Positions 1,330-17,094 of a stretch of 24,000 nucleotides of DNA are shown piece after piece. This DNA comes from Coriobacteriia bacterium. Lineage in GTDB: Bacteria > Actinomycetota > Coriobacteriia > Anaerosomatales > Anaerosomataceae. The stretch is from contig JAUSBK010000001.1 in assembly GCA_030652115.1 (NCBI GenBank), forward strand, positions 34,254 to 58,253. The letters run 5' to 3'. Position numbers and translations under genes: made by a program. The stretch's first letter is position 1. The number at the start of each line of letters is the position of its first letter. The notes beneath the pieces are model-generated. The model had not been told where the DNA came from. It saw only the letters and a list, made by a program, of their open reading frames with translations, and did not search any database.

Positions 1330-1785
1330 TCAGGCGCTTGTCTGCGCCTCGCAGCGCCTGCAGATGCCTCTCAGATGGACATCGACCGTCTCGACCGTGC
1401 CGAACGTCGAGGTGGCACCTGCAGCTCGGACCGCGTCGAGCGCGGGATCGACGACGTCGCGGACGAGCCCGCATCGCGTGCATACGAAGTGATGGTGCTC
1501 GGCCAGGTTGGCGTCGTACCGCGCCGGGCCGGCGGTTGCAGTGACGCGTGCAACGACACCGATGTCGACGAGTGTCCCCAGAGTGCGGTAGACCGTGTCG
1601 AGCGAAACGGTCGGCACGCGGCCCCTTACCGCGTTGAAGATGGCCTCGACATCGGGGTGCTCATCGGTCGCCGCCAACTCACGCACGATCTCGAGCCGCT
1701 GGTGGGTGAGCCGAAAGCCCTGACGCCTGAGTGCGCCGGTCAGGAGTTCGACTCTGCGGGAGATCTCGTCAGGTGCAACTGACAT
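1330..1785 (-). CDS. Fur-family metalloregulator, PerR/CatR-like (peroxide role inferred from its position directly upstream of catalase)
   Basis: 151-aa ORF with a winged-helix N-terminus (FRLTHQRLEIVRELA...VSLDTVYRTL). HHHFVCTRCG and GICRRC supply two CxxC pairs, the Fur-family structural Zn site. AGGAG (1794-1798) lies 8 nt before ATG 1785. The gap to catalase on the same strand is 67 nt. Confidence 0.9.
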   Translation of the reverse strand: MSVAPDEISRRVELLTGALRRQGFRLTHQRLEIVRELAATDEHPDVEAIFNAVRGRVPTVSLDTVYRTLGTLVDIGVVARVTATAGPARYDANLAEHHHFVCTRCGLVRDVVDPALDAVRAAGATSTFGTVETVDVHLRGICRRCEAQTSA

Positions 1786-3557: not shown

Positions 3558-4472
3558 CTACTCCGCGGCGGTGACCCCGATCTGCACGAAGTAGCTGTAG
3601 ACGATGTACGGCGCGTCCGCGCCGCGCGACGGACCGACCGGGTCGACCTCGAGGATGCCCGGCATCCCGAGATCGGCCAGCAGCAGGGCCGTGACCTCCT
3701 GCGGTTCGACGGTCTCCGAGAGCTCGATCCGCACGTTGGCCGCGCGCCCGCCCGGCACGAACACCGAGCCGATCACCTCACCCGGCTCATCCGGCGTAGC
3801 GCCCCGGATCGCCACGACCCAGGAGTCCGCTGGTGCAAGCACGCGCTGAACGTCGATCGCGGTGCCGGAGTCGACGAGGAAGGCCGCACCAAGATCGGCC
3901 TCGGTGAGCCTGTAGACGAGGTCGACCATCGTGATATTCACGTGCTCGGTCACGACCACGCCGTCCGCCACGAGCGGCTTGTCGACAGGACCCGTCATCG
4001 CGGGACCACCGCCAGAGCCGCCCATGCCGCCCGAACCCATCGCCCCCCCGCCGAGCGACACCGTGTCGTCGGGATCGCCGGTGGTGTACTCGAAGGTACC
4101 GATCACGCCCTTGTCGGCAACGAGCGACACGAAGGCGCCCGCAGAGTAGTCGCGCGTGCGATCCACTGCTACAGAGACGCTGCGGTTCTCTCCTGCCTTC
4201 ACCGGTGCGGCGCCGATGAGCGCGCCAGGCGTCCCGTCGCCACGATCGGCCCGCAGGATGACCCACCCGTCCACCGGGGTCAGCACCCGATCGATCGCAA
4301 CGGCACCGTAGATCTGCTGGTCCTCCACCCGGATGACCACGTCCTCGGCCCCGACCATCACCCCGTCGGCGGGGAGTTCCCCCGATCCGTATGCGATGGC
4401 CGCCATCACGGCCACCTCCGCGATGAAGATCGCGGCCACGCCGATTCGTTTGACCGTACTCGAGACTTGCAT
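3558..4472 (-). CDS. Membrane-anchored extracytoplasmic protein with two tandem homologous domains joined by a Gly/Met-rich linker (uncharacterised; possibly DUF7282-like)
   Basis: 304 aa. N-terminal signal-anchor IGVAAIFIAEVAVMAAIAYG. Repeat 1 (about aa 37-133) and repeat 2 (about aa 167-300) share I-D--RVL-P-D-WV---R----PG--IG...L-AD-G--G--E. The linker is LGGGAMGSGGMGGSGGGPAM (nt 3990-4055). It is the last gene of the copA cluster, 27 nt after the preceding gene. Confidence 0.75.
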   Translation of the reverse strand: MQVSSTVKRIGVAAIFIAEVAVMAAIAYGSGELPADGVMVGAEDVVIRVEDQQIYGAVAIDRVLTPVDGWVILRADRGDGTPGALIGAAPVKAGENRSVSVAVDRTRDYSAGAFVSLVADKGVIGTFEYTTGDPDDTVSLGGGAMGSGGMGGSGGGPAMTGPVDKPLVADGVVVTEHVNITMVDLVYRLTEADLGAAFLVDSGTAIDVQRVLAPADSWVVAIRGATPDEPGEVIGSVFVPGGRAANVRIELSETVEPQEVTALLLADLGMPGILEVDPVGPSRGADAPYIVYSYFVQIGVTAAE

Positions 4473-4499
4473 GTGTTTGCTCTCTTCGTAGGGGTGGAC

Positions 4500-5537
4500 C
4501 TAAGGAGCCCTCACGACGATCTCACCGGACATCATGCCCATGCCGCACGTCATCGGGTATGTGCCCGGCTCGCTTGCAGGCAGAACCACCTCGGTGGTGG
4601 CGTTGGGGGCAAGCGCCACGTCAACGTCCATGCCCGGGATCACCAGGCGATCGGAGCACCCCACCGCCTCACGGCGGTCCACGATGAGCCGGACCTGTCG
4701 GTCCGCAGGCACCACCACGGTGGACGGAAAGTACTGCACGCTCTGGATCACGAGCGGCACCTCGGCAACGCCGTCGGAGGCGGTCGTGAACTCGAGCGCG
4801 GGCTCATCCGAGGTGCCGTTGAAGATGCCGAGCACCGCCCGGGAGTTGACCGGGAAGCCGGTGAGCAGCGCAGCCCGGTTCAGGAACACAAGCCCCGAGA
4901 TGATCACCACGACCGCGAGCACGATGTGGAGCCGCTGCTTCCACGTCTTGGGGATCATGCTCGACGCGGTCCCAAAGGCGAGCATGAGCGGCGCGGTCCC
5001 GAGGCCGAAGGCGAGCATCGTCAGACCGCCCGTGAGCGCACTCCCACTCGAGGCGGCCACAAGCTGAGCCGCCTGCAGCGGGGCGCAGGGCATGAGGCCC
5101 GTGAGAAGACCGAACGCAGCGGGCACGGCGAGCGTGCTCTCTCCCTGCTCGGCATCGGCTGTTGCCTTGCGCCGCAGGCGGAGAAGCGCGTTCACGAGCG
5201 CCTTTGGCGGGCGTGGCGTGAGACGCAGCGCCCAGGGGAACCGGCCGGTCATGCCGAGTCCGAGAATGATCATGAACACACCGGCGAGCGCCATCACCCA
5301 GGGCCGGATCGCGTCCACGTCAAACGCCGAACCGATGGCGCCGAGCAGGGTACCGACCGCGGCGTAGCTGAAGATCTTCGCGCCCTGGTAGACGAGGTTG
5401 GGGGCAAGTTTGCCTCGCCAGCCTGTGTCGTCGCTGCACTGCACCACGTAGGTGACCACCATCGGACCACACATGGAGAGACAGTGCACACTCGTAGCCA
5501 GCCCGAGCGCAAACGATGACACGAAGAGCGTGATCAT
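4500..5537 (-). CDS. DsbD_2 / TauE-SafE-like (HCxxMCGP) polytopic membrane protein fused to a C-terminal cupredoxin-like domain
   Basis: 345 aa. TM1 motif [12 protein letters not shown] and a second motif GLMPCAPLQ. The C-terminal 89 aa form a beta-rich domain ending [17 protein letters not shown] (a cupredoxin_1-type C-terminal loop). Its start ATG overlaps the copA stop (ATGA, 5534-5537). Confidence 0.8.
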
Positions 5538-8248
5538 GACTCGGTCCGCACGAGCGAGGGCTTGAACCGCCGGAGCAGAAGCGAGCTCGTCACCACGCTC
5601 ACGCTCGAGAGCGCCATCGCACCGCCGGCGATCTCGGGCCGCAGCAAGCCGAGCGCCGCCACCGGGATGCCGAGCGCGTTGTAGCCGAGCGCCCAGAAGA
5701 AGTTCTGGCGGATCTTGCGCATAGTCGCGCGGGAGAGCTCGATGGCCGTGACCACGTCGCGCAGGTCGTTGCGAATCAGCACGATGCCGCCGGTCTCCAT
5801 CGCAACGTCCGTGCCCGCACCCATGGCGATGCCCACGTCGGCCTGCGCGAGCGCCGGCGTGTCGTTGATGCCATCGCCCACCATGGCGACCGTGAGTCCG
5901 CGCTCCTGAAGCTTCGCGACCTCCTCGGCCTTGTGCTCGGGAAGCACCTCGGCGAGCACGTGGTCGGCGGGAATGCCGACCTGGGCGGCGATGGCCTCGG
6001 CGGTGCGACGGTTGTCGCCCGTGATCATGAAGACTTCCACGCCCATCTTCGCGAGCTGTTCGACCGCTCTGGCCGAGTTGTCCTTGAGCGTGTCGGCGAC
6101 CGCGATCATCCCCGCGAGCTTGGCGCCGCTCACGCCCACGAGCATCACGGTCTTGCCCTCACTCTCGAGCTCGCTGATGCGCTCCTCGAAGGCCGCGATG
6201 CCGATGCCTTCACGTGCCATGAGCTTGCGGTTGCCAAAGGCCACGCGGGTTCCCTCAACGCTGCCTTCAACGCCGTGGCCGGGCACCGCAGCGAAGTCCT
6301 CCACGGCCGGCAGATGCATGCTCTTCTCCTTGGCGTGCGCCACGATCGCCTCCGCCAGGGGGTGCTCGCTCTTGCGCTCGAGCGCCGCGGCGAGCATGAA
6401 GACGCGCTCGGTGTCGTGCCCCTCGGCCAGCTCGATGTCGGTCACCACGGGCTTGCCGTGAGTAAGCGTGCCGGTCTTGTCGAAGACGATAGCCTTGATC
6501 TTGTAGGCGGTCTCGAGGGCCTCGCCGCTCTTGATGAGGATGCCGTTCTCGGCACCCTTGCCCGTGCCCACCATGATGGCGGTCGGGGTTGCGAGCCCGA
6601 GCGCGCAGGGACACGCGATGACCACCACGGAGGTACCCGCGAGCAGCGCCTTGATGAACGGCGTGAGCTCGGCGTAGAAGGCGGGATCCACGAAGCGCGG
6701 CACCACGAGCAGCCACACCAGGAACGTGAGCACCGCGGCGCCGATCACCGCGGGCACGAACACCGCGCTGATGCGATCGGCGAACCGCTGCACCGGGGCC
6801 TTGGAGCCCTGCGCGTCCTCCACGAGCTTCACTATCTGTGCGAGTGCCGTGTCTGAGCCCACCTTGGTGGCGCGGAAGTGGAAGCTCCCGAGCTTGTTCA
6901 GGGTGGCGCCGATCACCGCATCGCCCACCTGCTTCTCCACGGGGATCGACTCGCCGGTGAGCATAGATTCGTCCACCGCCGAGGCGCCCTCGAGCACCAC
7001 GCCGTCCACCGGCACCTTGTCGCCAGGGCGGACAACCACGACATCGCCCACCAGGACGTCCTCAACGGGCACGTCGATCTCGGCGCCGTCTCGCACCACG
7101 CGCGCGGTCTTGGCCGCAAGGCCCATCAGCGTCTTTATGGCGTCGCTCGTGCGACCCTTCGCCCTCGCCTCGAGAAGCTTGCCGAGGATCACGAACGTGA
7201 TGAGGAGCGCGCTGGTCTCGTAGAACACCGGCTCCTCGGCAAATGCCGGAATGAACGTGGCCGCGACGCTGTACAGGTACGCTGCGCCCGTGCCGATGGC
7301 GATGAGCGTGTCCATGTTGCCGGTGCGCCGCTTGAGCGCATGCCAGAAGCCTCTGTAGAACTGCCACCCCGCGATGAACTGCACGGGAGTGGCGAGAACA
7401 AAGCCGAGGTACTTGCCGGTCGCCATGGGATCCCAGGCGCCCCCCACATTGTTGGCGAGCCACATGGCGAGCCTCGTGGGGATGCCGTCCATGAACGGCT
7501 GGAACATCATCACGAGCAGCGGGATGGAGAGTGCCACCGAGAGCACGAGCAGACGCACCTCGTGGTCGATATGGGTCTGCTGCGCCTCGCGCTGGGCGTC
7601 GCGCGCGCTCTCGCCGCCGCGCTCCTCCTCAACCCGAACGATCGCGTCGTAGCCGGCGTTGCGCACCGCCGCAACAAGATCGTCCACGCTCACCCGCGCA
7701 GGGTCGTACTCGATCGCGGCCGTCTCGGCGGCGAGATTCACGGTTGCGGAGACCACGCCGCCCACCCGGATGAGCGTCTTCTCGATCACGGCCTGGCACG
7801 ACGCACACGTCATGCCGATGATGCCGAGCGTGGCTCTGACCGCCGGACCCGTGAGCACGGGCGCAGCAAGGTCTTCGTCCACGTCGTCGGGCATCACAGG
7901 ACAGACGCCGGTCGGGCAGGCATCGGCGGTGCCGGTCTCCTGCTCGCCAGTATCCTCGGAGGTTGCCGCGCCGGGCGCCGGCTCCGCGAATTCGGCCGGC
8001 ATCTCCACCGGCTCGAGCGTCACGGCCCCGCCGCGGGGCGTGAAGCCCGCGGCCACGATCCCCGCCTCGAGCGCGGCGAGGTCCACTGCCGGATCCGCCG
8101 CAATCACTATCACGCCGGTGGCCGCGTCTGCCTTCACGTGCTCCACGCCGTCGACACGGGAGAGCTGCATGCCCACGAGCTTCTCGCACGCGCCGCAGTG
8201 CATGCCGTCGACCTCGATGCGAAACGCCTGTGATTCGGCGTGTTCCAC
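5534..8248 (-). CDS. copA: Copper-translocating P1B-1 P-type ATPase with two N-terminal HMA domains
   Basis: HMA motifs GMHCGACE and GMTCASCQ; TGES ([11 protein letters not shown]); CPC ([11 protein letters not shown]); FDKTGTLT; [10 protein letters not shown]. The track ORF runs to 8362, but that extension overlaps the ABC ATPase gene. I place the start at GTG 8248 ([13 protein letters not shown]...), 10 nt after the ABC stop and preceded by AGGGA. Confidence 0.92.
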
Positions 8249-8258
8249 GGGTACGTCC

Positions 8259-8966
8259 CTACTCGCTCGCTCGGACAGGACTCGCTGCGTGCTCCTCGGC
8301 GACGAGATGTCCCGAGGCCATCTCGATCGCACGAGTTCCGTGCGACAACAGCGCAAGCGCATGCGTGACCATCACGATCGTCACATCCGTGGAGCCGTGA
8401 ACGCTACTGAACAGCGCCATCATCTCGGCCTCGGTACGCTCGTCCAGGTTGCTCGTGGGCTCATCGGCCATGATGATACGCGGACGGTTGATGAGCGCGC
8501 GCGCAAGCACCACGCGCTGCTGCTGTCCGGCGGAGAGCTGTCGCGGAAACGCCGCAGCCTTCTCGGCGATTCCAACGAGGCGAAGCAGCTCGAGTGCCCG
8601 CTCGTCGAGGTCGAGCGCGCGCCGCTCGGCGCCGAACACGCTTGGCAGCACCACGTTCTCGAGTGCCGTGAGCGTGGGCATCAGACTCGGGAACTGGAAG
8701 ACGAAGCCGATCGCGCCGTGCCGAAGCCGGCAGCGCTCCTTGTCCGGGATGCCCCACAGGTCGGTGCCGTCGAGCCGCACCGCCCCGGCCGACGGCCTGG
8801 CGAGACCGGCCATGAGGTTCAGCAGTGTCGTCTTGCCTGAGCCCGAGCGGCCGCTGATGACCACGAACTCGCCGTCGGCGATGGCGAGACTCACGTTGTC
8901 GACCGCGGTCACGGGCGCTAGAACCTTGTCGTCGTACGTCTTCGTGACGCCCTCAAGGGTGATCAT
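8259..8966 (-). CDS. ABC transporter ATP-binding protein, MacB/LolD/FtsE-like
   Basis: 235 aa. Walker [12 protein letters not shown]-loop FVFQ, signature LSAGQQQRV, Walker [14 protein letters not shown]-loop VMVTHA. GAGGGAG lies upstream of the ATG, which is 4 nt after the permease stop. Confidence 0.92.
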
Positions 8967-8970
8967 GCGC

Positions 8971-10164
8971 TCACTCCCTCATCGCGCTCGCCGGGTCTTG
9001 CCGGCTTGCGCGGATCGCGGGAACGAGCGAGGCAAGCGTTGCCGTCACCACGGAGGCGGCGAGGCCGGCGAGCAAGAGCATCGCGAGTGCGGGCAGCGAC
9101 GGGAAGAGGAACGGCACGCCGATGCGCCCCACGATGTAGTCGTGGAAGAGGTAGGCCGCGAGCGCGGAGAACGCCGCTCCAACGAGACCGCCGGCTGCGG
9201 CCAGAAGCACCGCCTGGATCACGAGTGAGAGGACCACGTGCTCCCGGGTGGCGCCAAGCGCACGCCACACGCCGATCTCCCGGCGTCGCTCGTGCGATGC
9301 CATCGAGAACACGACCGCGATCAGCATGATGGAGAGCGCCACCGTGAGTCCGAGCACGAAGCCCAGGCCGCTGCGCAGCGTGGCGATGTGCAGCCTGAAG
9401 TCGTCGAACATCGAAGGTGCCATCACCACCCCCACATCCTGTACGCGAGTCAGGATGGCGCCGGCAACCGCGTTCGGGTCCTCACCTTCGGCCACCCGCA
9501 CGAGTATCGATGACACGCTGCTGTCCGGGATCTCGAGCGGACGTTCGGCTTCGGTCACCGACAGGCGCGCCATGTCACGCGCCGTCTCGAAGGTGAGAAA
9601 CAGGCTCTGGTCGAGGTTCCCGCCCGTGGGCTCCAGATTCGCTGCGAGCTTGAGCGGGTAGCCGTAGATCTTCAGGCCGCCCTCATCCTCCGACGCCGAA
9701 ACGAACGCGCCGCCCACCGCATCGCCGAGAGCGAGATCCTCGCCGAGCTCGCGTTCGAGCCACGGCTGCACCGTGAAGTCGGTGGCCGGGTCGAACGCCA
9801 CGATGAACATGTCGCTCACCGAGCAACACGACGCGCCCGACAGCGACGCGAGGTACATCTGCGGGCTCGCGGCCTCTACACCCGGGACCTCGCGAATCTC
9901 TTCAACCGCCGAAGCAGACATCCAGACCGTGCCCGGCGTGCCCATGAGAAGCGCACTCTCGACCCTGGCCTCGGTCCCCCGCGGCACCACGAGGAGGTCG
10001 GCCCCCAACCGCCCCTGGGTGAGCCGAAGGCTGTCGTTCGTCCCCTGCAGCACGAGGGCGGCGGCGAGCACGAGCGCCGCAACCAGCATGGCCGAGAGGA
10101 ACACAATCCAGCTGCGGAACTCGTTGCGCGCGATGTCTCTGAGCGCGAGTCGCGTGAACGTCAC
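8971..10164 (-). CDS. ABC transporter permease, FtsX/MacB type (4 TM with a large extracytoplasmic domain between TM1 and TM2)
   Basis: 397 aa with a GTG start and GGAGGG 7 nt upstream. TM1 is WIVFLSAMLVAALVLAAALVL, followed by a soluble domain of about 225 aa and then three C-terminal TMs with the FtsX-type region RRREIGVWRALGATREHV. A vicinal Cys-Cys (ASCCSV, nt 9823-9828) lies in the extracytoplasmic domain. Confidence 0.88.
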   Translation of the reverse strand: MTFTRLALRDIARNEFRSWIVFLSAMLVAALVLAAALVLQGTNDSLRLTQGRLGADLLVVPRGTEARVESALLMGTPGTVWMSASAVEEIREVPGVEAASPQMYLASLSGASCCSVSDMFIVAFDPATDFTVQPWLERELGEDLALGDAVGGAFVSASEDEGGLKIYGYPLKLAANLEPTGGNLDQSLFLTFETARDMARLSVTEAERPLEIPDSSVSSILVRVAEGEDPNAVAGAILTRVQDVGVVMAPSMFDDFRLHIATLRSGLGFVLGLTVALSIMLIAVVFSMASHERRREIGVWRALGATREHVVLSLVIQAVLLAAAGGLVGAAFSALAAYLFHDYIVGRIGVPFLFPSLPALAMLLLAGLAASVVTATLASLVPAIRASRQDPASAMRE

Positions 10165-10228
10165 TCGGGGTCCCTCCGGTGCGATCGGACATCGTCTGCG
10201 GGCGTGGCTCGCGTCACGCGTGGGAGAC

Positions 10229-10660
10229 TCAGGCTGGAGTCTCCTCTCCGGTATCGCCGCTTCCGGCCAGAGCGATAGCAGCTACGCTGAGCGCCGCAGC
10301 GATCGCGCCCAGCAGGATCAGCGACGGCTTCATGACGTTGAGGCATGTCTTGTCCATCGCACACACGCCGATGAGTTCCGTGGGAAGCGCGACGAGCGCG
10401 GCGCCGAGCAGCACGCCGATCACGCCGAGTACGCGCCGCGTCTCCTTGCGATGGCTGACGGCGAGCAGGATGCCTACAACGCCCAGGACCACTGCCACCG
10501 CCACAGAGGCGCGCGACGTCCAGTAGCACTTCATGTCGATCTGCCGGCCATCCTTGGTCGTGATGAAGAGGCCCTCAGCAGTGCAGTTGTTCGTTACGGG
10601 GATGACCACCGCGAGCACAGCTACCACCAGAAGCGCGATGCCGAGCACCTTCATGACCAT
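10229..10660 (-). CDS. Small 4-TM membrane protein with four cysteines in the two predicted outward loops (DUF4418-like)
   Basis: 143 aa. GGGAG lies 6 nt upstream of ATG 10660. There are four hydrophobic segments, and HRKETRR between TM2 and TM3 fixes the topology (positive-inside rule). C26 (NNCTAEG) and C45 (MKCYWT) fall in loop 1; C100 and C106 (GVCAMDKTC) fall in loop 2. The family name is from memory of DUF4418 architecture, not from a search. Confidence 0.7.
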   Translation of the reverse strand: MVMKVLGIALLVVAVLAVVIPVTNNCTAEGLFITTKDGRQIDMKCYWTSRASVAVAVVLGVVGILLAVSHRKETRRVLGVIGVLLGAALVALPTELIGVCAMDKTCLNVMKPSLILLGAIAAALSVAAIALAGSGDTGEETPA

Positions 10661-10757: not shown

Positions 10758-10774
10758 ATACCCGTCGGCGGTAG
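10758..10774. promoter_or_regulatory. Imperfect CsoR-type operator-like repeat ATACCC-GTCGG-CGGTAG about 100 nt upstream of the first gene of the copA cluster
   Basis: One half-site matches ATACCC/GGGTAT perfectly and the other matches 4/6 (CTACCG on the minus strand). It shares the GATACCC core with the perfect palindrome at 11995-12010 and lies in the only sizeable intergenic region upstream of the cluster. Confidence 0.3.
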
Positions 10775-10785
10775 GGCCGTAAACG

Positions 10786-11607
10786 CTACTCCGGCTTGCG
10801 CGCGGTGAGCGTGAACATCATCGGGACCTCGGGGTGGCCGTCGGGCATGCCGAAGAGGTCGGGCTCTCGCTCCACCATGCCGAGTGTGTACTTCCACGCC
10901 AGCAGCGGGAACTCCCGGAGTTCGTCGATCACGAGACCTGCACGCACGAGCGCGCCGATGATCTCCTCGAAGGTGTGCTGCCAGGAGTGCGAGGTGCCCG
11001 CGAACTCACCGCCCGGCGCGGCGTAGCTGCCGTACTCCTGCCACTCGAGGGCGTCTCTCATGAAGTACGGGTAGCGCACGCGCAGCTCGGGGGCCTCGGC
11101 CTCATCGTCGAAGATCCAGAGCGTTGGGTGCGCGTCGGCGATCTTGAACACGCCACCCGGTACGAGGCTACGTGCGATCGTGCGCGCCCATGGCTCGAGA
11201 TCCGGCAGCCAGGAGATCACACCATAGGAAGTGAAGACGAGGTCGAACGCGCCTTCTGAGAGCTCCGCCGGAGGAGCGGTGACATCGCCCTCGATGAACG
11301 TAGCCTGGACGCCCATGCGCGACGAGAGATCGCGAGCCGCCACGATGGCTGCGGGCGAGAAATCGAGCCCCGTCGCCTCCGCTCCGAGAAGTGCCAGACG
11401 CACGGTGTCCATGCCGAAGTGACACTGCAGGTGAAGCGCGCGCAGGCCGGCCACGTCACCCACCAACTCCGCGATGATGCGATCGAACGGCCGCGACGCC
11501 GGGTCGGCGATGAAGCCCTCGACATCGTAGAAGTCAGAAGGTACGTGCAGCGCCGTCCAGCGCTGCCAGAGTTCGCGGTTTGCTGCCATCCGTTCGCGGT
11601 CGTCCAT
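10786..11607 (-). CDS. Class I SAM-dependent methyltransferase
   Basis: The track ORF extends to 11727. I prefer ATG 11607 (MDDRERMAANRELWQRW...), which is preceded by GGGGAGGGG. The SAM-binding region is LRALHLQCHFGMDTVRLALLGAEATGLDFSPAAI...DLVFTSYGVISWL. Confidence 0.8.
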   Translation of the reverse strand: MDDRERMAANRELWQRWTALHVPSDFYDVEGFIADPASRPFDRIIAELVGDVAGLRALHLQCHFGMDTVRLALLGAEATGLDFSPAAIVAARDLSSRMGVQATFIEGDVTAPPAELSEGAFDLVFTSYGVISWLPDLEPWARTIARSLVPGGVFKIADAHPTLWIFDDEAEAPELRVRYPYFMRDALEWQEYGSYAAPGGEFAGTSHSWQHTFEEIIGALVRAGLVIDELREFPLLAWKYTLGMVEREPDLFGMPDGHPEVPMMFTLTARKPE

Positions 11608-11725
11608 GCGAGCCCCTCCCCTGCGCCAGATCGGTCCCTGCAGCGGCGAACCGCCAGGAGAAGACGATACGCTACACTCGACGCGGGTTGCAGAGGGCGC
11701 GCGAACGAGAAGAGGCTCTGGTCGC

Positions 11726-11947
11726 ATGACCTGCTACATCAGGCATCTCGGCCGACTGTTCGAGCTGCTCGGTCTCGAGGCCGACACGGTAACCCGCAAG
11801 CGGGTTGACGGCGCGATCCGCGAGGCCTTTGGCCTGGGTGCCGAGGCGCACTGCCCGGAGGTCTGGGCTGCGATCAAACCGCTTTCGGCCCAGGTGCTTG
11901 CGGGCAGACTCCGCGGACCGCTTGGCATGCCGGACCCGGACGCCTGA
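11726..11947 (+). CDS. Small (73 aa) hypothetical protein with paired Cys/His residues
   Basis: MTCYIRHLGRLFELLGLEADTVTRKRVDGAIREAFGLGAEAHCPEVWAAIKPLSAQVLAGRLRGPLGMPDPDA. GAGAAGAGG lies upstream of ATG 11726. The upstream part of the track ORF (11606-11725) is Pro/Arg-rich and overlaps the divergent methyltransferase start. It is on the same strand as the heliorhodopsin gene and 102 nt upstream of it. Confidence 0.5.
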   Translation: MTCYIRHLGRLFELLGLEADTVTRKRVDGAIREAFGLGAEAHCPEVWAAIKPLSAQVLAGRLRGPLGMPDPDA

Positions 11948-11994
11948 AACCACATGAGGACGAGGTAGATGGTGCGTCCGGCGGTGTTACTGGG

Positions 11995-12010
11995 ATACCC
12001 ATAGGGGTAT
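11995..12010. promoter_or_regulatory. Perfect inverted repeat ATACCC-ATAG-GGGTAT, a CsoR/RcnR-family-type operator candidate, overlapping a TATATG -10-like hexamer (12008-12013)
   Basis: Read directly. It lies 40 nt upstream of the preferred heliorhodopsin start (12050). This is an A/T-flanked C-tract/G-tract palindrome in a locally AT-rich patch. Confidence 0.5.
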
Positions 12011-12049
12011 ATGAGCACCAAAGCAACCCGCCCAGGGAGGAGAACGGCA

Positions 12050-12808
12050 ATGGACGAGGAACGCCGCTTCAAGAGATTGAGGCTCTACAACGTCGTGATG
12101 GGCTTCATCCATCTGGCGCAGGGAGCGGCCATCGTTGCGCTCTCGCAGCCGTACGCAGTACCCGTGACCGCCTCGTGGATGAACACCCGCCCGGGTCCGG
12201 GAGTGTTCAGCATGCCGCAGTTGTACTTTGAGTTCGAGCTCGGCTACGCGGTCGCGCTCTTCTTGTTCTTCTCGGCGCTCGCGCACTTCGTGATCGCCGG
12301 ACCGGCGTACAAGCGCTACGTCGAGGGCTTGAAGCAGAGCCGCAACTACTACCGGTGGATCGAGTACTCCCTCAGCTCCTCGCTGATGGTGGTGCTCATC
12401 TCCGCGCTCGTCGGCATCACCGACATAGCAGCCCTCACGGCGATCTTCGGCGTGAACGCGATGATGATCCTGTTCGGCCTGCTGATGGAGAAGTACGAGC
12501 AGCCGGGCAAGCCCGATTGGACCGCGTTCATCTTCGGCAGCATCGCGGGGATCGTGCCCTGGATCGCTATCGCCGACTACCTCTGGGGACCCGGCGCGAG
12601 CGACCTTACGCCTACCTTCGTGTACTGGATCTTCGCCTCGATGTTCGTGTTCTTCAACAGCTTCGCGGTGAACATGATCCTGCAGTACAAGCAGGTCGGT
12701 AAGTGGAAGGACTACCTGTTCGGCGAGTCCTCCTACGTGCTCCTGAGCCTGGTGTCCAAGTCACTGCTAGCGTGGCTCGTGTTCGCGAACGTGCTGATCC
12801 CGCAGTAG
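12050..12808 (+). CDS. Heliorhodopsin (7-TM retinal protein with inverted topology)
   Basis: It aligns along its whole length with the prototype heliorhodopsin 48C12 as I recall it: FIHLAQ (cf VFHLLQ), LAHFVI (cf LFHFIV), RWIEYSLSSSLMVVLI (cf RWVEYSLSSSVMIVLI, counterion Glu), AIFGVNAMMILFG, GSIAGIVPWI, FVFFNSFAV, ILQYKQVGKW, and YVLLSLVSKSLLAW (cf YIVLSLVAKSALAW; Schiff-base Lys codon at 12758-12760). The start is set at ATG 12050 because GGGAGGAG (12035-12042) sits 7 nt upstream. The track start at 12011 abuts the palindrome and -10 element. Confidence 0.93.
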   Translation: MDEERRFKRLRLYNVVMGFIHLAQGAAIVALSQPYAVPVTASWMNTRPGPGVFSMPQLYFEFELGYAVALFLFFSALAHFVIAGPAYKRYVEGLKQSRNYYRWIEYSLSSSLMVVLISALVGITDIAALTAIFGVNAMMILFGLLMEKYEQPGKPDWTAFIFGSIAGIVPWIAIADYLWGPGASDLTPTFVYWIFASMFVFFNSFAVNMILQYKQVGKWKDYLFGESSYVLLSLVSKSLLAWLVFANVLIPQ

Positions 12809-12828
12809 GGCATCACTTGGCGAATCTG

Positions 12829-12865
12829 GCGGGCGGGGCGCAGGCTGCTCCGCCCGCTCTTCGTT
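12829..12865 (+). terminator. Intrinsic terminator of the heliorhodopsin transcript
   Basis: An 11-bp GC stem GCGGGCGGGGC (12829-12839) / GCTCCGCCCGC (12847-12857, one G-U pair), a 7-nt loop, then TCTTCGTT. It begins 21 nt after the stop codon. Confidence 0.6.
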
Positions 12866-12957: not shown

Positions 12958-13941
12958 ATGCGCGAACTCCTCCCGCCCGGCAGCGTGGTGCTCGGACCGA
13001 TGGCGGGCGTGACCGAGGCGCCGTTCCGCGGCATCTGCAAGCGGATGGGCGCAGCGCTCACCTACACGGAGATGATCAGCGCGAAAGGGCTGCACTACAA
13101 CCCTGACGCGCGCGTCTCTCGCGCCATGCTCACATTCGATCCGGCCGAGACGCCGTGTGCAGTGCAGCTCTTCGGCTCGGAGCCGGCGCTCATGGCCGAG
13201 CAGGCGGCGCGCATCGTGGCCGAGTACGGCCAGCACGTCGCGTGTATCGACATCAACATGGGCTGCCCGGTCACGAAGATCGTGAGCAACGGCGAGGGCT
13301 CCGCACTCATGCGCACGCCGGAGCTGGCGGCCGAGATCGTGGGCAGGCTGGCCGAAGCGGTCCGGGTACCGGTGACCGTGAAGTTCCGCAAGGGCTGGGA
13401 CGAGGCGAGCGCGAACGCCGTGGACTTCGCGCGCGCCATGGAGGCGGCTGGCGCCTCGGCGCTCTGCGTGCACGGCCGCACGCGCCAGCAGTTCTACCGC
13501 GGCACCGCCGACTGGGACGTGATCGCCGAGGTGAAGGCCGCGGTGAGCGTGCCGGTCATCGGCAGCGGGGACGTGTTTTCGGCAGGCGACGCCAAGGCGA
13601 TGCTCGACCGCACGGGCGCAGACGCCGTGATGGTCGCGCGCGGCGCACAGGGCAATCCGTGGATCTTTCGCGAGGCGCGCGCGCTCATCGACCATGGTGA
13701 GGTGCTCGCTCCCCCGTCGGCGTTCGAGCGAGTGGAGATGGCGCGCGAGCATGCGCGGGCGCTCGTGGCCTTCGGCGGCGAGCACGCGGTCGCGCGCATG
13801 CGCAAGCATGTGGCGTGGTACATCACGGGCATGCCGGGCGCGAGCCACGTGCGCGAGCGCGTGAACCACATCGGTTCCTCGGCGGAACTCGACGCACTGT
13901 TGGTCGAGTACCGCGAGTTTCTGGCCGAACGGGGCGAATAG
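12958..13941 (+). CDS. dusB: tRNA-dihydrouridine synthase (DusB-like)
   Basis: MRELLPPGSVVLGPMAGVTEAPFRGICKRMGAALTYTEMISAKG...DINMGCPVTKIV (catalytic Cys)...VTVKFRKGWD...LCVHGRTRQQFYRGTADW...GSGDV. The start is uncertain: ATG 12958 lies 16 nt from GAAGGAGAGG, and an in-frame CTG at 12949 is better spaced. The track extension to 12703 overlaps the heliorhodopsin gene. Confidence 0.9.
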   Translation: MRELLPPGSVVLGPMAGVTEAPFRGICKRMGAALTYTEMISAKGLHYNPDARVSRAMLTFDPAETPCAVQLFGSEPALMAEQAARIVAEYGQHVACIDINMGCPVTKIVSNGEGSALMRTPELAAEIVGRLAEAVRVPVTVKFRKGWDEASANAVDFARAMEAAGASALCVHGRTRQQFYRGTADWDVIAEVKAAVSVPVIGSGDVFSAGDAKAMLDRTGADAVMVARGAQGNPWIFREARALIDHGEVLAPPSAFERVEMAREHARALVAFGGEHAVARMRKHVAWYITGMPGASHVRERVNHIGSSAELDALLVEYREFLAERGE

Positions 13942-14062
13942 GCGCGGGTTACTCCCGCGGGGCGAGCACGCGAGCGACGTTCAATGTGCGTACATGCAGG
14001 CGCCTGCGGGCAGAAACGCCCTAGGGGCTAGCCGAGGCATGGACGCTCGCGGAGGTCACCCG

Positions 14063-16129
14063 ATGAACGAGCACACCGGACACGGAGAACAGGCGCGCGC
14101 GGACCACAGCGGCCACGACACGCACGGTGGTGGCGGGGCGATGCCTGCGGCCCACGACCGCCATGAGGGCCACAGCGCTGCGATGTTCCGCAGCCGTTTC
14201 TGGCTCTCGCTCGCGCTCACCGTACCCACGGTCATCTGGTCGGAGGCCGTCCAGCACCTGCTCGGCTATTCGGCGCCCGCCTTCCCCGGCTCGGCGTACG
14301 TGCCGGCGGTCTTCGGGACGATCGTCTTTGTCTACGGCGGGCTGCCGTTCCTCAAGGGCGCTCGCAACGAGCTCCGCGACCGGCTGCCGGGGATGATGAC
14401 GCTCATCTCGCTCGCAATCGGCGTGGCGTTCGGCTTCAGCCTCGCGGTCACGCTCGGCGTGCCGGGCATGGACCTGTGGTGGGAGCTCGCGACGCTCGTG
14501 ACGATCATGCTCCTCGGCCACTGGATCGAGATGCGCTCGATCGCGCAGGCCCAAGGCGCTCTCGCGGAGCTGGCGAAACTGCTGCCCGACACCGCCGAGC
14601 GGATCGGCGCCGACGGCTCGGCCGAGCAGGTGCCAGTCTCGGCGCTCACGGCGGGCGACCTCCTGCTCGTTCGGCCGGGCGCACGTGTGCCGGCCGACGG
14701 CGAGGTGGCCGAGGGCGAGAGCACGCTCGACGAGTCGATGATCACGGGAGAATCCCGGCCGGCGAGCAAGGCCGCGGGTGATGCGGTGATCGCCGGCACC
14801 GTGAACGGCGCCGGGTCGTTGCGTGTGCGCGTGACGCGCACCGGCGAGGACACCGCGCTCGCCGGCATCATGCGACTCGTGGCGGGCGCACAGGCGTCGC
14901 GCTCGCGCGCGCAAGACCTCGCGGATCGCGCGGCCAGGCTCCTTACGTTCGTGGCGATCGGGTCCGCGGTGATCACCGCCGTGGCCTGGTGGCTCGTCGG
15001 CGCCGAGTGGACGTACACCGTCGAGCGCGTGGTGACCGTGCTCGTGATCGCATGCCCGCACGCGCTCGGCCTGGCCATCCCGCTCGTGGTCGCGATCTCC
15101 ACGACCCTCGGCGCGCGCAGCGGGCTGCTCGTCCGCGACCGGCGCGGGCTTGAGGAGGCGCGGCTGATCGACACGGTTGTCTTCGACAAGACCGGCACCC
15201 TCACGCTCGCCGAGCACCGCGTGGTTGACGAGGCCTACGCTGAGGGCGTCGACCCGGCAGAAGCGCTCGCGCTGGCAGCCGCCGTGGAGGGCGACTCCGA
15301 GCACCCTGTGGCGCGCGCGATCATCGCGCGAGCCGCCGAGAAGAGCGCCCGGCCTCTGCACGCGAGCGGGTTCGAGGCGCTCCCGGGCCAGGGCGTGCGT
15401 GCGAGCGTGGAGGGCCGCAAGATCGCCGTCGGCGGTCCGGCGCTGCTCGACGCGCTCGACCTCGAGGTCCCGCCCGCACTCGAGGAGGCACTTGCCCGCT
15501 CGGCCGCAGCAGGACGCTCGGCGGTCTATCTGGTGGATGGCGACACGGTGCTGGCTCTGTTCTCCGTCGCCGATGCGGTGCGTCCCGAGTCGCGCGAGGC
15601 GATCGACCGCCTGCACGCCATGGGTATCGATACGGCCATGCTCACCGGAGACGCGGAGCCCGTGGCGCAAGCGGTGGCTGCCGAGCTCGGCATCGACCGC
15701 GTGCTCGCCGAGGTGCTTCCGGCCGACAAGGCGCACGAGATCGAGAAGCTGCAGGCGGGCGGCATGCGCGTCGCGATGGTGGGCGACGGTGTGAACGATG
15801 CGCCGGCGCTTGCGACCGCCGATGTGGGAATCGCGATCGGCGCCGGCACCGAGGTGGCGGTCGAAGCCGGCGACATCGTGCTCGTGCGCTCGGACCCGCG
15901 CGATGTGGCCTCCATCGTCTCGCTCAGCCGCGCCACCTACCGGAAGATGGTGCAGAACCTGTGGTGGGCGGCCGGGTACAACATCGTGGCGATACCACTA
16001 GCCGCCGGGCTGCTCGCTCGCTGGGGAATCGTGCTCTCCCCCGCCGTCGGCGCGGTGCTCATGTCGGCAAGCACGGTGATCGTGGCCGCCAACGCACAGC
16101 TGCTACGGCGGTGGCGCCCCGAAAGCTGA
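14063..16129 (+). CDS. copB: Copper P-type ATPase of the His-rich, CPH-motif class (P1B-3, CopB-like)
   Basis: No HMA domain. The N-terminus is His-rich: [34 protein letters not shown]. It has TGES (MITGESRP), CPH ([12 protein letters not shown]), FDKTGTLT and [10 protein letters not shown]. The start is set at ATG 14063 with GGAGG (14051-14055) 7 nt upstream. Confidence 0.9.
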
Positions 16130-16147
16130 CCGACCCCACCATATCAC

Positions 16148-16178
16148 TTGTGTTATTTCATCACACATGCGTTATACT
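16148..16178 (+). promoter_or_regulatory. Putative promoter (TTGTGT ... TATACT) with an embedded inverted repeat TGTGT-N9-ACACA, positioned for a leaderless mntA-hepT mRNA
   Basis: TATACT at 16173-16178 ends 6 nt before ATG 16185. TTGTGT at 16148-16153 gives a long 19-nt spacer. The repeat arms are 16149-16153 and 16163-16167. This is an AT-rich island immediately after the copB stop. Confidence 0.4.
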
Positions 16179-16184
16179 CGCAGC

Positions 16185-16772
16185 ATGACCCCCCTGTCTG
16201 ACATCGGACGACAGATGATCGCGGCACGGCAGACCGCCGGAATCACCCAGGCGGAGCTCGGCCGCCGCCTTGGCGTGGCCCAGCCGCAGGTGGCACGGTG
16301 GGAGGCCGCTGCCTACCGAAACGTGGCCCTTGAACGCGTGAGCGCGGTGGCCGAGGCGCTCGGCTTCGACATCGCCGCGCCAGATCTGCCGCTCGCGGCC
16401 GAAGCCCCCGGCACGTACGAGACCACCCTACCGGGCGCCGATGCCGAGGCCCTGCGCGCCCTCGCGCGCACCCGCACCTCACCCGCGGCGCTGGCCGCAT
16501 TCGCACGCACGCACGGCATCGAGCGGCTCGAGCTGTTCGGCTCTGTGCTGAGGCCCGACTTCACGCCGGAGAGCGACGTGGATGTTCTCGTGACCTACGC
16601 GCCCGATCGAGTGCCGTCGCTCTTCAGGCTTGTCGACCACGAAACCGAACTCGCCGGCCTGTTGCGCCGTCGGGTGGACCTCGTCTCGCGCCGTGGCATC
16701 GAGCGAAGTGAGAACACGATACGGCGTGAGGCAATCCTCACAACCGCTCGGACGATCTATGCGCGACCCTGA
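16185..16772 (+). CDS. mntA: MntA-type nucleotidyltransferase antitoxin with N-terminal XRE-family HTH domain (type VII TA antitoxin, fused architecture)
   Basis: The HTH is IAARQTAGITQAELGRRLGVAQPQVARWE, followed by an Ala/Pro-rich linker and then the minimal NTase motif LELFGSVLRPDFTPESDVDVLV (GS-X10-DXD). The track start is 16167; I prefer ATG 16185, given the -10 element at 16173-16178. It overlaps hepT by 14 nt. Confidence 0.85.
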   Translation: MTPLSDIGRQMIAARQTAGITQAELGRRLGVAQPQVARWEAAAYRNVALERVSAVAEALGFDIAAPDLPLAAEAPGTYETTLPGADAEALRALARTRTSPAALAAFARTHGIERLELFGSVLRPDFTPESDVDVLVTYAPDRVPSLFRLVDHETELAGLLRRRVDLVSRRGIERSENTIRREAILTTARTIYARP

Positions 16773-17094
16773 AGCCAGTCTGGCCGATATCGCGGTGTAC
16801 GCTCGCCGCGCCGTGGCCTACTTGGATGGCATGTCCCTTGCCGAGTTCGCGTGCAACACGGGTGTCCAGGACCAGGTGGTACGCTGCCTCACCGTGATCG
16901 GGGAGGCCGCCCGCCGAACGCCCGAGGGACTCCGCACCCGGCACCCCGATGTCCCGTGGTCTGTGATGATCGCGACGCGCAACCGCCTCGCCCATGAGTA
17001 CGACGGCATCGACATCGAAACGGTCTGGTTGACGGTGACCGACGATCTGCCCAGCGTGCTGCAGCAGCTCGAAGCGTATCTGCCCGAGGCCTAG
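16759..17094 (+). CDS. hepT: HepT-type HEPN (DUF86) RNase toxin
   Basis: 111 aa from ATG 16759: MRDPEASLADIAVYARRAVAYL...VIGEAARR...RNRLAHEYDGID. RNRLAHEY is the Rx4HxY HEPN motif. The upstream part of the track ORF (16630-16758) is out of frame with mntA and is not needed. Confidence 0.85.
   Translation: MRDPEASLADIAVYARRAVAYLDGMSLAEFACNTGVQDQVVRCLTVIGEAARRTPEGLRTRHPDVPWSVMIATRNRLAHEYDGIDIETVWLTVTDDLPSVLQQLEAYLPEA

Follow-up and report, generated by a model that had tools for sequence, protein, structure and literature searches.

Repressors of the CsoR family that recognize type 2 sites bind two G/C tracts flanked on the outside by AT-rich repeats, and a 5'-TAC/GTA-3' dyad is essential for CsoR binding (PMC3902906). 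TTHA1953, another member of the family, bound DNA about 10-15-fold more weakly when the gap between the repeats was made one base longer or shorter (PMC10318464). The copper-sensing CsoR of Streptomyces lividans has the consensus ATATACCCCTNAGGGGTATAT, and its csoR, copZA1, and copZA2 oligonucleotides have nine bases from TAC to GTA (PMC3902906). For the RicR site of Mycobacterium tuberculosis, the Methods of PMC3944814 print TACCCCGCTGGGTA, with eight bases from TAC to GTA, whereas the primer implies TACCCCGCTGGGGTA, with nine; we took the RicR spacing from the primer and not from the printed site. ScCsoR of S. coelicolor, a two-cysteine CsoR-family sensor of sulfane sulfur, binds ATACCn6GGTAT and controls persulfide dioxygenase (pdo) and rhodanese genes, and polysulfide releases it from DNA (PMC7533328). 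The 79-bp EMSA probe used in that study contains GATACCCCAGGGGGTAAT, on which we checked the N6 spacing. The cst operator of CstR from S. mitis, ATATACCCTTATGGGGTATAT, has nine bases and is therefore of the N7 type (PMC8643695), and CstR is a CsoR-family member with a non-copper effector, a sensor of persulfide. Because the S. mitis operator is N7, spacing fails to predict the effector across phyla; within Streptomyces, it separates the paralogues. ScCsoR was the only case of an experimentally studied N6 operator that we found in the literature.

[quoted passage not shown] Our search found no literature that links heliorhodopsin with CsoR, the sole co-mention being a GPCR database paper. We know of no described transcriptional regulator for any HeR gene.

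We analyzed a 24-kb stretch of DNA (the window) from a Coriobacteriia bacterium, in which a palindrome lies upstream of a HeR gene (Table 1). The initial annotation had described a perfect 6-4-6 inverted repeat that overlaps a TATATG hexamer, 40 nt before the HeR ATG, and all of this was confirmed by reading the sequence (...GGCGGTGTTACTGGGATACCCATAGGGGTATATGAGCACC...) and by a repeat scan of the window. As a 16-mer, the element has 7 of 8 dyad pairs, and its right arm shares bases with the hexamer. Symmetry alone is weak evidence, because the window contains 17 perfect 6-4-6 repeats (131 if spacers of 0-8 are admitted). ATACCC-N4-GGGTAT with up to two mismatches occurs once in the window, against 0.17 expected, and the single exact match to ATACC-N6-GGTAT is a count that none of 100 shuffles reached. 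It is conservation, not symmetry, that carries the evidence for a candidate operator. The upstream TGTTAC is separated by 17 nt from TATATG, and we infer that it is the -35 element; TATATG is without the final T usual in a -10 hexamer, and a scan with sigma-70 and terminator consensus sequences found no promoter at the palindrome.

Table 1. Coordinates of features in the window and in related loci, and the palindrome in each HeR promoter
Feature	Locus	Position	Strand	Remarks
Fur-family gene	window	1330-1785		
Six-gene cluster: DUF4418, FtsX permease, ABC ATPase, CopA-type ATPase (two HMA), DsbD-cupredoxin fusion, DUF7282	window	10660-3558	minus	
CopA, HMA domains	window	5534-8362	minus	
Second site, ATACCCGTCGGCGGTAG	window	10758-10774	.	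5' of the DUF4418-FtsX-ABC-CopA cluster; not supported as part of the system
Methyltransferase gene	window	10786-11610	minus	
Conserved GTTA, within -35-like TGTTAC (11985-11990)	window	11986-11989	+	5 nt 5' of palindrome; GTT invariant and fourth base A/T in 7/7 promoters
Operator-like 16-bp palindrome, ATACCCATAGGGGTAT = ATACC-N6-GGTAT = TAC-X8-GTA	window	11995-12010	.	Conservation and match to ScCsoR consensus
-10-like hexamer TATATG, overlapping right arm	window	12008-12013	+	ATA after GG(T/C) invariant in 7/7 promoters
Shine-Dalgarno GGAGG	window	12036-12040	+	9 nt 5' of HeR start; read from sequence; region conserved in promoter alignment
HeR gene, 252 aa	window	12050-12808	+	Pfam PF18761, E 3.2e-95
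GC-rich 13-bp hairpin, probable terminator	window	12828-12858	+	20 nt past HeR stop; kept in L083
Dihydrouridine synthase (Dus) gene	window	12958-13941		
His-rich CPH-type CopB ATPase gene	window	14063-16129		Likely start 14063, end 16129
MarR-family gene	L001	9424-9939		
MarR-family gene	L004	2736-3296		
MarR-family gene	L011	220-711		
MarR-family gene	L015	9446-9943		
MarR-family gene	L167	4913-5368		
Site and right flank	window (=L161)			ATACCCATAGGGGTATATG
Site and right flank	L083			ATACCCATAGGGGTATATC
Site and right flank	L082			ATACCTAAGGGGGTATATG
Site and right flank	L008			ATACCTGCTGGGGTATATG
Site and right flank	L170 (=L171)			ATACCTGTGGGGGTATATC
Site and right flank	L169			ATACCCTATCGGGCATATC
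Site and right flank	L172-L174			ATACCCCATGGGGTATAAG, perfect 16-bp palindrome

We compared the locus with 160 HeR loci from genomes and metagenomes, a set extended by exact-protein look-ups, in which the closest loci came from uncultured Coriobacteriia or Actinomycetota MAGs. L161, a 5.2-kb Logan contig from the same organism, was counted together with the window as one promoter. Seven distinct HeR promoters, all of uncultured Coriobacteriia-like bacteria, have the palindrome in the same position, and their shared footprint is GTT(A/T)-N5-ATACC-N6-GGTAT-A or, in fuller form, GTT(A/T)-N5-ATACC-N4-gGGG(T/C)ATA. The ATACC arm is invariant in all seven and the GG(T/C)AT arm is nearly so, and the base after GG(T/C)ATA is T in six promoters and A in L172. 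The G-tract is conserved, and the C-tract reads CC(C/T), L008, L082, and L170 having T for C at arm position 6. Variation among the seven promoters lies in the inner spacer, in the remaining 5'UTR, and in the flanking genes. The upstream neighbor of HeR is a 73-aa ORF in the window and L083, TspO in L008, L082, and L170, a Gly_transporter gene in L174, and an unknown gene in L169; downstream of HeR lie the hairpin and then Dus in the window, UbiA in L008 and L172-L174, and Dus at a distance of 10-25 nt in L169 and L170.

The element thus stays with HeR while the neighbors change. A conserved footprint, a constant link to HeR, and changing neighbors form the pattern expected of a functional cis-element dedicated to the HeR promoter, and the observation made in the initial annotation is stronger than its reader could know. 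The spacer is not conserved in ordinary promoters. At the HeR promoter, the invariant ATACC in the spacer mirrors the GGTAT that overlaps the -10-like TATAT, which argues for a dyad-symmetric DNA-binding protein rather than RNA polymerase alone. In a neighbor-joining tree, the site-bearing HeRs formed two subclades interleaved with site-less clades.

Several features around the promoter deserve separate mention. The HeR 5'UTR and first codons of the window (11964-12113) and L083 are 96-100% identical, and the HeR coding regions are about 72-94% identical per 50-nt block, with the two proteins falling in different subclades. A near-identical 5' end combined with a divergent coding region in different subclades suggests that this end of the gene, together with the promoter, is under strong constraint or has recombined. 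The 73-aa ORF (MTCYIRHLGRLFELLGLE...), which has no Pfam hit, adjoins HeR in the window (11726-11947, plus strand), L083 (16-237), and L161 (564-785). The L083 copy is 88% identical, and copies downstream of HeR in L084 (15651-15818) and L095 (1612-1773) are about 50% identical; the L095 contig stops short of the HeR promoter. The ORF appears to encode an uncharacterized small protein linked to HeR. We rejected it as the regulator, as it is missing from the site-bearing L008 and found in L084, where the site is absent. The TspO/MBR gene lies at 9476-9904 in L008 and 776-1207 in L170, and in L083 the region that separates the small ORF from the promoter (about 238-350) includes about 100 nt alignable to the 3' end of TspO, a stretch that the window does not have.

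The anatomy of the site is that of a CsoR-family operator. TAC at 11996-11998 and GTA at 12007-12009 form the type 2 dyad, which is kept in six of the seven promoters. L169 has GCA: its arm reads GGCAT, and the altered base belongs to the GTA triplet, critical to S. lividans CsoR. The core CCC-ATA-GGGG, with ATA and TAT outside, falls within the type 2 description of G/C tracts 2-4 bases apart with AT-rich repeats. Like the S. lividans CsoR and RicR sites, the HeR site combines the TAC/GTA dyad with C- and G-tracts, AT-rich ends, and overlap with promoter elements. It differs from them in having eight rather than nine bases from TAC to GTA in all seven promoters, so that it does not fit the ATACC-N7-GGTAT pattern of the copper subclass. 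CsoR and RicR control copZA, csoR, and other copper genes, whereas the copper genes near HeR share no conserved copy of the site. An internal control was provided by the csoR-copA operon of L058, whose operator (ATACCCCAGGAGGGTAT) has nine bases and overlaps TATAAT; its layout, GGGGTATAAT, places the right arm on the -10 element, as at the HeR promoter. The CsoR encoded there carries Cys, His, and Cys at alignment columns that do not vary across the three CsoR sequences in our comparison. The cst operators of CstR have arms nearly identical to those at HeR (ATACCC / GGGGTAT), but they have N7 spacing, come from a different phylum (Firmicutes), and control sulfurtransferase and persulfide reductase genes.

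The closest match is to the ScCsoR operators. Both systems are from Actinomycetota, both have the exact 16-bp ATACCn6GGTAT (GATACCCCAGGGGGTAAT at the pdo/rhodanese operators versus GATACCCATAGGGGTATA at HeR), and both place the site near a promoter, at -9 and -48 in S. coelicolor. They differ in that ScCsoR acts on sulfur-oxidation genes through a tandem pair, whereas the HeR site is single and its target is a retinal photoreceptor; the HeR site also has no adjacent gene for a cognate regulator.

These comparisons point to a candidate conserved repressor-type operator dedicated to HeR, probably of the CsoR family. In the model that we favor, a dyad-symmetric repressor would occupy the HeR promoter from the spacer across the -10 region, holding HeR off until the repressor is inactivated; the controlled unit in some relatives would be HeR together with the adjacent dihydrouridine synthase gene. 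The repressor would most likely be a tetramer of the CsoR/RcnR family (DUF156), with its gene at another place in the genome, and the site would be private to the HeR promoter rather than common to the neighboring copper-export genes. Reactive sulfur or thiol stress is a more likely inducer than Cu(I), and a thiol or persulfide sensor more likely than a copper sensor, because ATACC-N6-GGTAT matches ScCsoR and not the N7 sites of copper CsoR and RicR. We give about even credence to a reading of the element as an operator of DUF156 type that serves HeR only and whose repressor responds to an effector other than copper. The initial annotation had likewise placed a CsoR/RcnR-type operator on the HeR promoter, and the type 2 anatomy, the ScCsoR match, and the seven promoters bear out that part of its claim; its link to copper is undercut by the N6 spacing.

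The fetched loci amount to 1.8 Mb, in which 0.87 matches to ATACC-N6-GGTAT are expected and 11 were found; for ATACCC-N4-GGGTAT, the expectation was 0.07 and the count 5. With other spacings, N7 was found twice and N5 and N8 not at all. Outside HeR promoters, N6 sites that contain the G-tract are found only in L020 and L080. L020 (4012-4061) has a tandem pair, ATACCCATGGGGGTAT and ATACCCCTTGGGGCAT, with 34 bp from one start to the next. The pair separates a DUF302 gene from a gene for a 1033-aa FAD-binding/4Fe-4S/CCG protein, and its first site fills the spacer of a TTGACA...TATCGT promoter. L080 (14592-14607) has a perfect ATACCCCTAGGGGTAT immediately 5' of a CMD/AhpD-like gene (14229-14582, minus strand), beside groEL. 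These sites are thus at non-copper redox genes, and neither locus places one at a copper gene. The Nanopelagicales loci L048/L159 and L154/L158 also match the N6 motif exactly, but inside coding sequence and with no G/C tracts, and we set these matches aside as chance.

A CsoR/RcnR regulon has a DUF156 (PF02583) gene in the same genome, and that gene is often autoregulated through the same motif. The W-X-Y-Z residues of DUF156 proteins read x-C-H-C in copper sensors and x-C-x-C in persulfide sensors. As the initial annotation had stated, the window contains no CsoR-family gene, a result that we obtained both with tblastn and with an HMM for which five members of the family served as input. Flanks of up to 10 kb on either side of the site in site-bearing relatives likewise had no DUF156 gene, and among all the fetched flanks the only one was in the unrelated L058. 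In a CsoR profile search, the 120 best matches listed were all from Bacillus or Acidimicrobiia relatives.

The lack of a DUF156 gene near any copy of the site is one reason to consider that the element is the operator of a repressor from another family, such as the MarR, TetR, Rrf2, or ArsR types, with its likeness to CsoR sites a coincidence. CsoR is not alone in having short GC palindromes with AT flanks, and the sister loci that lack the site show that control of HeR is not tied to one family. In L001, L004, L011-L019, L089, L091, and L167, a MarR-family gene lies directly 5' of HeR, on the same strand and at a distance of 50-60 nt, in what looks like a dedicated marR-HeR unit; the MarR proteins of these loci have a conserved N-terminal Cys (..LLCAY..). 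Like the site-bearing loci, the MarR-HeR loci thus seem to place the same HeR family under dedicated repressor-type control. They differ in that the regulator belongs to another family and is encoded directly 5', and ATACC-N6-GGTAT is absent from them, which counts against a MarR-type reading of the site. Also against an operator of another family is the exact match to a published 16-bp CsoR-family consensus, including both the TAC/GTA dyad and the G-tract. We know of no other repressor family whose common operator consensus gives ATACC-N6-GGTAT. We consider an operator of another family unlikely, and assignment to the CsoR family, made from motif similarity, plausible.

A further possibility is that a Cu(I)-sensing CsoR binds both the HeR site and a second site at the copA cluster, so that HeR is induced together with copper export. 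Co-regulation of HeR with copper genes had been proposed in the initial annotation, and the setting invites it: HeR lies between the genes for two copper ATPases, CopA and CopB, CopB is likewise downstream of HeR and on the same strand in L008, and operators of the CsoR family resemble one another. The degenerate copy that the annotation had reported at the copA cluster does exist, but it has N7 spacing and one mismatch (ATACC-N7-GGTAg), and relaxed matches of this kind are expected about once per window from base composition. It is also not conserved. L162 has the same six-gene cluster, with a DUF4418 that is 81% identical, and reads CTGCC...GGTAT at this position, so that TAC is lost and the dyad broken; the flanking CGTTTAC and CGGGTATCGAGTAACC blocks, which look like ordinary -35 and -10 elements, are retained. 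No equivalent of the second site is present in L163-L166 (73% identical). The cluster lies at 3558-10660 in the window, 4287-11346 in L162, and 10001-17417 in L163, where multicopper oxidase genes lie upstream of it.

The syntenic loci L007 and L008 retain SpeE/MFS and the methyltransferase and are missing the copA cluster at this position, so its adjacency to HeR is lineage specific, and the adjacency of HeR and copper genes in this genome is incidental. In the window, the cluster sits between SpeE/MFS and the methyltransferase gene as if inserted. At the site-bearing L169, L170, and L172-L174, no copper genes were found in the sequence available. A copper regulon would have the same operator 5' of copA, copZ, or csoR; the sole candidate is the second site, which differs from the HeR site in spacing and is not conserved in L162-L166, and nothing comparable lies 5' of CopB. 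A CCCTAGGG palindrome is present about 35 nt before the likely CopB start, and we rejected its core (14020-14027) as an operator: the TAC/GTA dyad is missing from it, and L008 does not conserve it.

We also rejected a HeR-Dus-CopB operon under control of the palindrome. In the window, L083, L008, and L172, four lineages in all, HeR is followed by a GC-rich hairpin of 12-15 bp, with z scores down to -3.9. L083 keeps the hairpin of the window, with an A-U replacing a G-U pair, and the hairpins of L008 (z -3.7) and L172 (z -3.9) are equally strong and unrelated to it. The genes after Dus in L169 and L170 are convergent, and CopB is not among them. Dus itself is a recurrent downstream neighbor of HeR (L169 1713-2705; L170 2046-3056; L007 3499-4464; L094 1606-2583; and the window), and its distance of 10-25 nt from HeR in L169 and L170 implies a HeR-Dus operon there. 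In the window, a 6-bp GC hairpin (13944-13960) directly follows the Dus stop, and a toxin-antitoxin-type pair, an HTH-nucleotidyltransferase (MNT-like) gene and a HepT/HEPN-like gene, lies just 3' of CopB (16167-17094).

Copper co-regulation is therefore not supported, given an unconserved second site, a lineage-specific cluster, strong hairpins between HeR and the downstream genes, and the absence of CopB in L169 and L170. Spacing argues in the same direction, as the HeR site is N6 and every copper-type site that we checked (the S. lividans oligonucleotides, the RicR primer, and L058) is N7, a one-base difference of the kind that weakened TTHA1953 binding (PMC10318464). We regard control of HeR by a copper-sensing CsoR as improbable.

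That no regulator is involved, and that the element consists of unusual core-promoter sequences or a 6-bp hairpin at the mRNA 5' end, has very little chance of being right: the right arm does overlap the -10-like TATAT, the copA-cluster promoter likewise has GGGTAT before a -10-like element, and the C-to-T change at arm position 6 would still permit a G-U pair in RNA, but a plain promoter leaves the mirrored ATACC of the spacer unexplained, the arms are conserved in sequence without compensatory changes on both sides, the RNA fold of the HeR 5' region is no better than that of shuffles (z -0.15), and no Rfam family was matched, whether the whole window was searched at gathering thresholds or the surroundings of the palindrome by E-value.

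Returning to a HeR-dedicated operator with a non-copper effector, the sister loci bear on the nature of the signal. In two site-less loci, an AhpC/TSA-redoxin gene ends 8 nt (L002, 7363-7704) or 5 nt (L005, 9655-9996) before the HeR start, which suggests that HeR is cotranscribed with a thiol peroxidase there. Because the site-less sisters carry a MarR-family or AhpC/redoxin gene 5' of HeR, dedicated stress-type control of HeR is a general theme in the group. This arrangement fits a gating of HeR expression by thiol-type stress repressors, and it fits the proposal that HeR mitigates light-induced oxidative stress (PMC8612252). A more specific version, to which we hold only tentatively, is that HeR in this uncultured Coriobacteriia-like clade of Actinomycetota belongs to the regulon of a thiol-switch CsoR-family repressor that responds to persulfide or reactive sulfur, with the sister lineages using a Cys-containing MarR or a peroxiredoxin operon.

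These results remove a misleading copper lead and present HeR as a candidate new target for a known kind of regulator. The prediction is a rise in HeR expression under a chemical stress signal, for which reactive sulfur or thiol stress is the probable candidate, and the question of which signal HeR responds to becomes a simple experiment. If the tentative thiol-switch version is true, the expression of an orphan photoreceptor would be gated by sulfur or redox stress, which would provide the first regulatory handle on the purpose of HeR.
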